In this document: positions 61,361-64,000 of the stretch, piece after piece
Position numbering within the stretch: the first letter of the stretch is position 1
Layout: every line of letters begins with the position of its first letter
Assembly (NCBI GenBank): GCA_038534315.1
Contig: JBCAWZ010000004.1
Coordinates: 37,837-101,836 of the forward strand
Source of the DNA: Pseudomonadota bacterium
GTDB taxonomy: Bacteria > Pseudomonadota > Alphaproteobacteria > Caulobacterales > Hyphomonadaceae
Length of the DNA: 64,000 nt
Direction: 5' to 3'
Made by a program: the position numbers and the translations under genes
The notes under the pieces: model-generated
What the model saw: only the letters and a program-made list of their open reading frames with translations
The model's database searches: none
What the model was told of the DNA's origin: nothing

Positions 61361-61624
61361 ATGGCTAATACTCGATCCGCTAAAAAGATGGTGCGCAAAA
61401 TTACGGCACGTACAGAAGTGAACAAGGCACGTCGTTCACGGATGCGTAGCTATGTGCGCAAGGTCGAAGAAGCGATCGAAGCTGGCGATAAAGCGGCCGC
61501 GTCTGAAGCGCTCCGCGAAGCTCAGCCAGAAATCATGCGCGCAGCAGGCAAGGGTGTGCTCCATAAGAACACATCGTCCCGAAAGATCTCACGGCTTTCC
61601 TCGCGCATTCGTAGCATGGCGTAA
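61361..61624 (+). CDS. rpsT: 30S ribosomal protein S20
   Basis: [13 protein letters not shown]...[10 protein letters not shown]...[16 protein letters not shown]; AGGAG RBS. Confidence 0.97.
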
Positions 61625-62036: not shown

Positions 62037-62045
62037 TGTTGATAA
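62037..62045 (-). promoter_or_regulatory. DnaA-box-like 9-mer upstream of dnaA
   Basis: TTATCAACA on the minus strand, one mismatch to TTATCCACA. Confidence 0.4.
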
Positions 62046-62076: not shown

Positions 62077-63543
62077 ATGGGGCTATTGAGCGGGGTAGAG
62101 AGAGAGGCAGGAGCAGAAAGCGACTTAGGCGGGGCGGACGTCCCAGACTCGCCCGGCGCACGAGAGCTGTGGGATCGGTCATTGGCCGCCGTCCGCAGTG
62201 AGGTCCCTGCTGAAGCATACGCCAACTGGTTGGCATCTGCGCGTTTTGTTGCGGAAGTGAACAAGTCGATCGTTATTGCGGCGCGTGATCCTTTAACACT
62301 TGATCGTATTGAAGCCGATTTTGCACGTCCCCTTCAGCGTGTTTGGCGACAGTTTGATCCAAAACAGCGACGTTTGCGTTTCAAACTGTGGTCTAGGATT
62401 TCGCCAGAAGTGCGCGACATGGTGGGCAATCCTTGGGCATTGCCGCAATCCAAAGAAGCGAGCCCGATGAATGCCGGTCGTGACGACAATACGCTGCGGC
62501 AGAGCATGAGTTTTGACACTTTGGTTGTGGGCGAGTCTAACGAGCGCGCTGTTGGCATTGCGAAACGCGTTGCATCTGGTGCGCCAGTGCCAGCCGGTAT
62601 CGTCGTGATGTACGGTCAACCCGGAACGGGTAAGACGCATTTGCTGAAATCGATCCAGGCACACGCCACCTCCCAAGGCGATCCCCGTCGCTTGGCGTAT
62701 TTGTCTGCGGAAGAATTTATGACGCGTTTTGTTGAAGGTGCGCGCATCGGGGACACGGCAGAACTGCAAGCCTTTGTGAAGAAGAATGAGCTTCTTCTCA
62801 TCGACGATCTGCACTGGATCGCTGGTAAGGTGAAGACAGACAAAGCCTTCTTTGGAGCGATCCGCGCGGTCACTGCGGAAGGCGGTCACGTGATCATTAC
62901 GGCCGATGCAGCGCCGGGTGACATGGTCGGTTTGTCGAAAGAACTGAGCAGTGAAATTCGCGGAGCTGCGGCAGTTGAGGTCGGCATTCCTGATCAAGCG
63001 ATGCGGAAGGAGATTGTCCGCCGTCACATGGACTTGATTGCCGAAAGCACACCAAACTTCCAGCTCACCGATGAGATGATCACCAGGATCGTCCAAGCTG
63101 TGCGCGGGCCGGGCCGGGAATTGTGCGGGGTCTTATGGAGCTTGCAGCTGGAAACTGGTTATGGCGAGCATGCGCCAACGCCGGAAATGCTGGAAGCGGT
63201 GATCCGTCGAATTGCAGGGGCGCCTCGGACGCCAAGCTTGGACGATATTAAGCGAGCCTGCATGCAGGCGTTCAACCTCGGTAAGTCAGAGATTGAAAGC
63301 GCCAGCAAAGTTCAGTCTATTTGTTATCCACGACAGATTGCCATGTATTTGTCGCGCGTTATGACGGACAAGTCTTACCCGCAGATCGCTATGGTCTATA
63401 AGAAAAAAGACCATACCACGGTCCTTCACGCCTATCGCAAAGTGAAATCAGCGATGGAAGAGGGTGACACCGATATGGCTAACGATGTCGAGCGGGCGCA
63501 GCAAGCGATTTATGACCGTCTCGCCGCACATGACATGAACTGA
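62077..63543 (+). CDS. dnaA: Chromosomal replication initiator DnaA (divergent)
   Basis: Walker A GQPGTGKT, Walker B LLIDD, sensor II GRELCG, domain IV PRQIAMYL...DHTTVLHA; position between rpsT and dnaN. Confidence 0.88.
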   Translation: MGLLSGVEREAGAESDLGGADVPDSPGARELWDRSLAAVRSEVPAEAYANWLASARFVAEVNKSIVIAARDPLTLDRIEADFARPLQRVWRQFDPKQRRLRFKLWSRISPEVRDMVGNPWALPQSKEASPMNAGRDDNTLRQSMSFDTLVVGESNERAVGIAKRVASGAPVPAGIVVMYGQPGTGKTHLLKSIQAHATSQGDPRRLAYLSAEEFMTRFVEGARIGDTAELQAFVKKNELLLIDDLHWIAGKVKTDKAFFGAIRAVTAEGGHVIITADAAPGDMVGLSKELSSEIRGAAAVEVGIPDQAMRKEIVRRHMDLIAESTPNFQLTDEMITRIVQAVRGPGRELCGVLWSLQLETGYGEHAPTPEMLEAVIRRIAGAPRTPSLDDIKRACMQAFNLGKSEIESASKVQSICYPRQIAMYLSRVMTDKSYPQIAMVYKKKDHTTVLHAYRKVKSAMEEGDTDMANDVERAQQAIYDRLAAHDMN

Positions 63544-63689: not shown

Positions 63690-64000
63690 ATGAAATTCAC
63701 AATCGAACGTGGCGCTTTGCAGAATGCCCTTTCTCACGTGCAGAGCGTGGTTGAGCGCCGCAATACGATACCGATCTTGTCGAACATCCTGATCGAAGCC
63801 GCCAACGGCTCGGTTCGATTGACCGCAACAGATCTGGATATTGAAGCCGTCGATCATGCCGATGCAAAAATAGACGCGGAGGGCGCCGTGACGGCGCCTG
63901 CATCGACTCTTTTTGATGTTGTTCGGAAGTTGCCTGCCGGTGCCGATGTTGAGCTTGCGCTCAATCCTGAGAACCGACAAATCACCTTGACATCGGGGCG
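63690..64000 (+). CDS. dnaN: DNA polymerase III beta clamp (5' part, truncated by window)
   Basis: MKFTIERGAL...VQSVVERRNTIPILSNILI...LTATDLDIE...LFDVVRKLP. Confidence 0.96.
   Translation, partial: MKFTIERGALQNALSHVQSVVERRNTIPILSNILIEAANGSVRLTATDLDIEAVDHADAKIDAEGAVTAPASTLFDVVRKLPAGADVELALNPENRQITLTSG

Follow-up and report, generated by a model that had tools for sequence, protein, structure and literature searches.

Replacement of both Box VII arginines by glutamate in the single DnaA of a Hyphomonadaceae bacterium and absence of the arginine finger in related Caulobacterales

The dnaA gene of a bacterium belonging to the Hyphomonadaceae (Alphaproteobacteria, Caulobacterales; assembly GCA_038534315.1) is located at positions 62077..63543 on the forward strand of a 64,000-nucleotide stretch of contig JBCAWZ010000004.1, the whole of which is called the window in the following. 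The DnaA protein encoded by this gene carries glutamate at the two positions of Box VII that correspond to R281 and to the arginine finger R285 of E. coli DnaA (residues of the latter are marked Ec). Nearly all bacteria have arginine at the finger position. Sequence comparisons indicate that the protein is, with good probability, an orthologous DnaA serving this Caulobacterales bacterium as its sole, functional chromosomal initiator, with a remodelled Box VII. Arginine is absent from both Box VII positions of the protein, which is the only DnaA found in the genome; its gene is under purifying selection, and the determinants of the cis ATP site and of DNA binding are intact. The missing finger is a real trait of the lineage and not a peculiarity of this gene.

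Box VII and the retained determinants of DnaA

The open reading frame codes for 488 amino acids without internal stops. Its product matches the Pfam domains DnaA_N (PF11638, residues 30-91), Bac_DnaA (PF00308, residues 140-295) and Bac_DnaA_C (PF08299, residues 389-456), all above the cut-offs; domains I, III (AAA+) and IV (helix-turn-helix) are found together on one polypeptide, and an AlphaFold2 (AF2) model shows three folded parts. This model was built on an alignment of 47 sequences of relatives without an E. coli DnaA row and reached a mean predicted local distance difference test score (pLDDT) of 90.9. Its best matches in a Foldseek search were the DnaA structures 8btg, 3r8f, 2hcb and 2z4r, with a TMt of 0.91 to domain III of T. 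maritima (2z4r) and of 0.88 to domain III of B. subtilis. The identification as the full-length DnaA of this genome is based on Pfam, TIGR00362, AF2 and Foldseek.

The Box VII positions were assigned using HMMER against the structures from B. subtilis (8btg) and A. aeolicus (1l8q/2hcb) and using MAFFT with E. coli DnaA (NC_000913). Both alignments run without gaps across Box VII and agree with each other. The Box VII helix comprises residues 288-295 (KELSSEIR; 62938..62961, + strand) and is also a helix in the AF2 model, followed by a strand at 298-301. In both alignments, Ec D280 corresponds to K288, Ec R281 to E289 (62941..62943, +), Ec K283 to S291 and the finger Ec R285 to E293 (62953..62955, +), so that both Box VII arginines are replaced by glutamate. 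Furthermore, the AID-2 residue Ec L290 is replaced by alanine. A sequence-only reading of the window had aligned R281 and R285 by eye with E289 and E293, and both the codons and the alignment proved to be right. It had also pointed to an arginine remaining at position 295, which is indeed present; the formal alignments place it at Ec G287, and together with the AF2 model they put it two residues beyond the finger position.

The other substitutions listed in that reading, in the helix following Walker B, in a motif of domain I and in front of the DHTT signature, were found as described, as were the retained Walker A and B motifs, the sensor II arginine, the PRQ motif and DHTT...H. Walker A (G180-T187; 62614..62637, +) retains K186 and T187, with P182 at the position of Ec T174. 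Walker B (D243-D244; 62803..62808, +), sensor I (D277) and sensor II (R347, Ec R334; 63115..63117, +) are kept, too. In the 47-sequence alignment K186, D244 and R347 are invariant, and T187, D243 and D277 are conserved to >=90%. The positions binding single-stranded DNA are V219, K251 and K253 (Ec V211, K243 and R245), and W32 is kept in domain I. In domain IV, which binds the DnaA box (63232..63540, +), the reading residues are kept or conservatively changed: R419, P435, D445, H446, T447 and H451 match Ec R407, P423, D433, H434, T435 and H439, and K411 stands for Ec R399. As judged from the alignment, the determinants for cis ATP binding and hydrolysis, for binding of single-stranded DNA and for reading of DnaA boxes are all retained.

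In the main clade of the genus, the canonical G-G-R in front of DHTT (residues 442-444 here; K443-K444 region, 63403-63408) is replaced by K-K-K. The equivalents of Ec G430-G431 are both lysine, which adds positive charge beside the DNA-reading helix.

Copy number and distribution of the arginine finger

The assembly, which is 95.45% complete, was searched with the profiles TIGR00362, PF00308 and TIGR03420. Additional dnaA copies, which the sequence-only reading had proposed to look for, were not detected: TIGR00362 and PF00308 revealed no second full-length DnaA in this assembly. The only related genes are one Hda-like gene and one open reading frame of 124 amino acids resembling domain IV alone. 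The Hda model TIGR03420 itself assigns only 56.9 bits to the DnaA under study (cut-off 194.8), i.e. the protein does not qualify as Hda. One dnaA is present in each of the 24 other genomes of the genus. Of 120 additional family genomes, 117 likewise contain one, and the three assemblies without a match are 65-88% complete. Further matches either come from pieces of the single dnaA or are weak and partial, and several of the assemblies consist of a single contig. A second dnaA was not found in genomes of the order either.

The 124-amino-acid open reading frame (L002:1411-1785, contig C34) lacks the AAA+ domain and reads R-D-R-S-T-V-A-H-A where the DHTT signature is expected. It would be a small protein of box-binding type.

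The gene order is enoyl-CoA hydratase, rpsT, dnaA, dnaN and recF, and the statement that only one dnaA lies between rpsT and dnaN was correct. The upstream neighbour rpsT, encoding ribosomal protein S20, is located at 61361..61624 (+). The 5' part of dnaN (63690..64000, +) runs off the window; on the contig past the window, L105:4527-5645 carries all three beta-clamp domains and is followed by a RecF-like gene (L105:5671-6783). Single copy, the dnaA-dnaN-recF synteny and the position in the DnaA tree all indicate orthology.

We read Box VII in 87 DnaA proteins from genomes of increasing distance. The residue at Ec 285 is arginine in all 19 other alphaproteobacterial families read, a sample chosen to include nine of the ten DnaA proteins from outside the order that score lowest with TIGR00362. 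In the alignment, arginine is found at this position in 23 of 23 finger-keeping sequences (24 of 24 counting E. coli). Six families of Caulobacterales were sampled, of which two keep the arginine and four lack it. One of the latter, a Caulobacter-like family, has histidine throughout (five genera), a second one leucine, tyrosine or histidine, and a third one valine, isoleucine, glutamine, lysine or aspartate. In the Hyphomonadaceae, glutamate occupies the finger position in 23 of 23 sequences of the genus and glutamate or aspartate in 39 of 42 sequences of the family, with valine or glutamine in the other three. With glutamate fixed in the genus and an acidic residue in most of the family, its presence is not a matter of chance.

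In a maximum-likelihood tree of DnaA all finger-less proteins form one clade (ultrafast bootstrap 98, Shimodaira-Hasegawa-like approximate likelihood ratio test 95), and the two arginine-keeping Caulobacterales families are placed among other Alphaproteobacteria. The alignment and phylogeny across Caulobacterales, which had been suggested as a check, place the loss of R285, among the families sampled, in one clade of four families. The simplest reading of this gene tree is that the finger was lost once, long ago, and that the position then drifted or was fixed for a new residue. One of the two arginine-keeping families (L082-L084) contains a two-residue insertion directly in front of Box VII, and its DnaA proteins are very divergent (249-317 bits with TIGR00362). 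Because these proteins keep the finger and diverge nevertheless, divergence of DnaA in Caulobacterales is not tied to the loss of the finger only.

The second Box VII arginine has a different history. At Ec 281 the main clade of the genus has glutamate in 18 and glutamine in 2 sequences; the deep clade keeps the arginine, as do 15 of the 19 sequences that represent other genera of the Hyphomonadaceae. The main clade is further characterised by lysine or arginine at Ec 280 and Ec 287, and at Ec 283 it has lost the basic residue. As far as these sequences indicate, the change of R281 to glutamate is specific to the main clade of the genus, unlike the loss of R285.

Synonymous sites were saturated in comparisons with the gene under study itself. 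The ratio of non-synonymous to synonymous substitution rates (dN/dS) was determined for the closest pairs within the genus, giving values of 0.03-0.10 at a dS of about 0.8-1.0. Within the main clade the Box VII columns are 95% identical, compared to 83% for the whole protein. These values indicate that the glutamates are maintained by selection and are not the result of decay.

The Caulobacter-like DnaA has histidine at both Ec 281 and Ec 285 (HMMER against 8btg), and its sensor II arginine is located at 356-358, matching the published R357 of C. crescentus (PMC3193534). In C. crescentus dnaA is essential and its ATP switch matters (PMC3193534). Since the Caulobacter-like protein is finger-less, the essentiality of this gene makes absence of the finger compatible with a role as initiator.

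Contact between DnaA subunits and the presumptive origin

The data may be explained as follows. The finger would have been lost once, in the ancestor of four Caulobacterales families, and its position would then have become histidine in the Caulobacter-like family and glutamate or aspartate in the Hyphomonadaceae. The main clade of the genus would, in addition, have undergone an inversion at the second Box VII arginine (D280-R281 to K/R-E) and gained the new lysine or arginine at Ec 287. DnaA would still initiate replication, presumably by head-to-tail assembly on closely spaced DnaA boxes beside hemE, and contact with the ATP of the neighbouring subunit would no longer be made through R285. 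This contact might be re-made by other basic residues (R263 throughout the family; K288 and R295 in the main clade of the genus). Alternatively, ATP might be sensed mainly in cis via sensor II. HdaA, with its own arginine finger intact, would reset the ATP switch.

The HdaA-like protein (251 amino acids; L034:1417-2172, contig C11) carries a motif of the clamp-binding type near its N-terminus, and the arginine in its Box VII is aligned to the finger of E. coli Hda. Because this arginine is kept, the genome still codes for a finger acting in trans to reset DnaA-ATP. The P-loop of the HdaA-like protein reads G-S-A-K-S-G-L-T and lacks the usual Walker A lysine in front of the threonine.

Six columns conserved in the finger-keepers are altered in all four finger-less families, i.e. 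Ec R285, R342, N255, 174, L168 and E424. The change at Ec 174 affects the P-loop (Ec T174, P182 here), and S355 (63139..63141, +) in the sensor II helix stands for Ec R342, an arginine that was lost together with R285 across the clade. At Ec N255 the protein has R263 (62863..62865, +) in helix alpha3, a candidate for a compensating or relocated arginine. Arginine or lysine is found at this position in 42 of 42 sequences of the family, compared to asparagine or aspartate in the finger-keepers, and the sister sequence with aspartate at 285 has arginine at Ec 255, too. A separate, independent sample comprised the 150 representatives ranking best in a search of 1.84 billion proteins; 148 of them were tabulated. 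Lysine or arginine at Ec 255 occurred in 21 of 22 representatives with an acidic residue at 285 but only in 2 of 96 that keep R285, and in 6 of 30 with other residues. R342 was absent from all 22 acidic representatives and present in 51 of the 96 R285 keepers.

These observations raise the possibility that the trans arginine has moved from alpha4 (Ec 285) to alpha3 (R263), where a salt bridge with E293 might position it so that an arginine still meets the gamma-phosphate of the neighbour. This would be a special form of the explanation given above and is compatible with it, and we regard it as tentative. In AAA+ proteins alpha3 is next to alpha4 on one face of the sheet, and according to the AF2 secondary structure (alpha3, 254-267; alpha4, 288-295) residues 263 and 293 both fall close to the C-terminal end of their respective helix, on what would be the surface facing the nucleotide of the adjacent protomer. 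Apart from the distribution of the basic residue, this vicinity speaks for the relocation. However, R263 persists in the family members with valine or glutamine at 285, i.e. the pairing is not obligatory, and the other finger-less families (with His, Leu, Tyr or Val) do not possess such an arginine. In the broader formulation, four of six Caulobacterales families would run a homo-oligomeric initiator without the canonical finger, and the acidic residue plus R263 of the Hyphomonadaceae would represent a relocated or re-wired contact; taken as a whole, we consider this doubtful as well.

Several points weigh against a functional initiator with a remodelled interface, and two of them also concern the relocated arginine. 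The association of R263 with an acidic residue at 285 may reflect one evolutionary event among related sequences and is thus weak evidence for covariation. The placement of R263 next to E293, or to the neighbour's ATP, is deduced from the general AAA+ topology. A glutamate facing the gamma-phosphate is electrostatically awkward. The NCBIfam equivalog model for DnaA, TIGR00362, matches the protein from 1 to 435 of its 437 positions with 293.5 bits, which is below the cut-off of 343.9 and the fourth lowest score among 111 alphaproteobacterial families sampled. Every scored member of the genus and most of the Hyphomonadaceae are likewise below the cut-off. Finally, the histidine-bearing family is presumably the Caulobacteraceae, an assumption based on an N-terminus that matches C. 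crescentus DnaA and on the published numbering of R357.

It might also be that R295, which is lysine in most of the genus, acts as a finger shifted by two residues, making the change of Box VII a cosmetic one. The residue is basic in 20 of 20 main-clade sequences (17 Lys, 3 Arg), and it ends the Box VII helix, where a long side chain could swing to the interface. Nevertheless, this appears improbable to us. The gap-free alignments by two methods assign R295 to Ec G287, and moving by two residues along the helix turns the side chain about 200 degrees away. The deep clade of the genus has methionine at this position, and across the family it is R, Q, K, L, H or M; because of this variation outside the main clade, R295 cannot explain the loss of the finger in the whole family. 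Both a misalignment and R295 as the finger were rejected on the basis of the two alignment methods and the helix boundaries of the model.

The gene hemE flanks the origin of replication in C. crescentus. In Hyphomonas neptunium the mapped replication maximum is close to hemE, and prediction of the origin from DnaA boxes was unclear (PMC6650430). In the genome investigated here hemE is located on another contig than dnaA, and in four closed genomes of the genus the two genes are about 450-570 kb apart. Upstream of hemE, 9-mers resembling DnaA boxes are found at recurring positions in 24 genomes of the genus (L106, L107-L129). Some of them are exact copies of the consensus (TTATCCACA), and some form pairs on the same strand at a distance of 11 bp. 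The intergenic region of our genome (L106:2533-2880, contig C8) also contains two TTAAC elements. TTCCACA upstream of this hemE is not significant alone, the signal arising only from the positional comparison across the genus. Judging from the positional recurrence, the region upstream of hemE is likely to be the origin, and the recurring boxes fit both the intact reading helix and an assembly of DnaA head to tail on neighbouring boxes. Within the 64-kb window the number of DnaA boxes is not above chance. One box-like 9-mer with one mismatch, TTATCAACA (62037..62045, - strand), is located 32 nucleotides in front of the start codon of dnaA and may be a site of autoregulation; as a single site it is not above chance either.

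Another explanation assumes that DnaA is mainly a transcription factor or box-binding protein and that replication starts without unwinding driven by a DnaA filament. The finger required for ATP-DnaA oligomers in E. coli is missing, dnaA is far from hemE in the closed genomes, and DnaA-independent initiation has been reported for some cyanobacteria. In Caulobacter, moreover, DnaA is also a transcription factor (PMC3193534). We consider this explanation very unlikely. The ATP-site and ssDNA-binding residues as well as HdaA are conserved under strong purifying selection, DnaA boxes occupy conserved positions at the presumptive origin, and replication of Caulobacter requires dnaA, the Caulobacter-like protein being finger-less as well.

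Least probable, and rejected here, is a non-initiating paralogue that would act as regulator, box-binder or filament capper while the real initiator is encoded elsewhere, one of two possibilities offered by the sequence-only reading: loss of both Box VII arginines would fit a non-oligomerising derivative, as would the low TIGR00362 score, but in the 95.45% complete assembly no other full-length DnaA or Bac_DnaA match was found apart from the Hda-like gene and the domain-IV-only open reading frame, the gene is single in genus and family, including single-contig assemblies, and it occupies the canonical locus. The other possibility, an initiator with a remodelled interface, is favoured by the evidence; it is, however, not special to this gene, as the loss of R285 spans four families.

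Comparison with known initiators

In a full-text literature search, which did not cover subscription journals, absence of the arginine finger from DnaA of Caulobacter or of the Hyphomonadaceae was not found to be described. Arg285 is treated as a conserved motif for oligomerisation of ATP-DnaA and has also been used to orient DnaA on origins (PMC13643167, PMC6727663). According to our data a whole clade, apparently including a leading model of the bacterial cell cycle, is without the finger, and the Hyphomonadaceae carry the opposite charge at its position. The role of the finger thereby becomes testable in tractable organisms, i.e. C. crescentus (His) and H. neptunium (Glu plus a new Arg). 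If the contact has indeed been relocated, ATP would be sensed on a structural basis unlike the paradigm established for E. coli, Aquifex and Bacillus. In practical terms, the equivalog model TIGR00362 under-scores what would be genuine initiators of this kind.

The protein shares the four-domain architecture of the canonical DnaA proteins (E. coli; B. subtilis, 8BTG/8BV3; A. aeolicus, 1L8Q/2HCB/3R8F; T. maritima, 2Z4R), including Walker A and B, sensors I and II, the H/B-motif binding single-stranded DNA, the residues of domain IV, the locus and the partner Hda. Unlike these proteins it has glutamate instead of R281 and R285, has lost K283 and R342, carries alanine instead of L290 and has gained arginine at Ec N255 and lysine or arginine at Ec 280 and 287. 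Hda/HdaA, the only other AAA+ protein of the DnaA type in this genome, provides a finger in trans to DnaA-ATP; it consists of a single AAA+ domain with a clamp-binding motif and lacks domains I and IV, which are both present in the DnaA described here.

DnaA of Caulobacter belongs to the same order and to the same finger-less clade, keeps the sensor II arginine and HdaA, and has its origin presumably beside hemE. C. crescentus DnaA is regulated by HdaA in RIDA (regulatory inactivation of DnaA), through R357 (PMC3193534). The Caulobacter-like proteins have histidine at Ec 285, histidine or arginine at 281 and arginine at 283, compared to Glu, Glu and Ser plus R263 in the protein investigated here, which is only 25-28% identical to them.

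The nearest experimental parallel is an engineered one. According to a review (PMC6727663) of the work of Grimwade et al. 2018, an E. coli origin with its ATP-DnaA-specific sites converted (oriC-allADP) suppresses the lethality of DnaA(R285A). There, too, a finger-less DnaA is viable when the sites of the origin do not demand cooperative binding specific for ATP-DnaA. Because oriC-allADP tolerates R285A, a lineage with altered origin and altered regulation could lose the finger. In the engineered system both the alanine and the origin were introduced by design, whereas the loss described here is natural and ancient, reverses the charge and came along with other substitutions. The parallel with a finger that becomes dispensable after a change in origin affinity points to co-evolution of initiator and origin.

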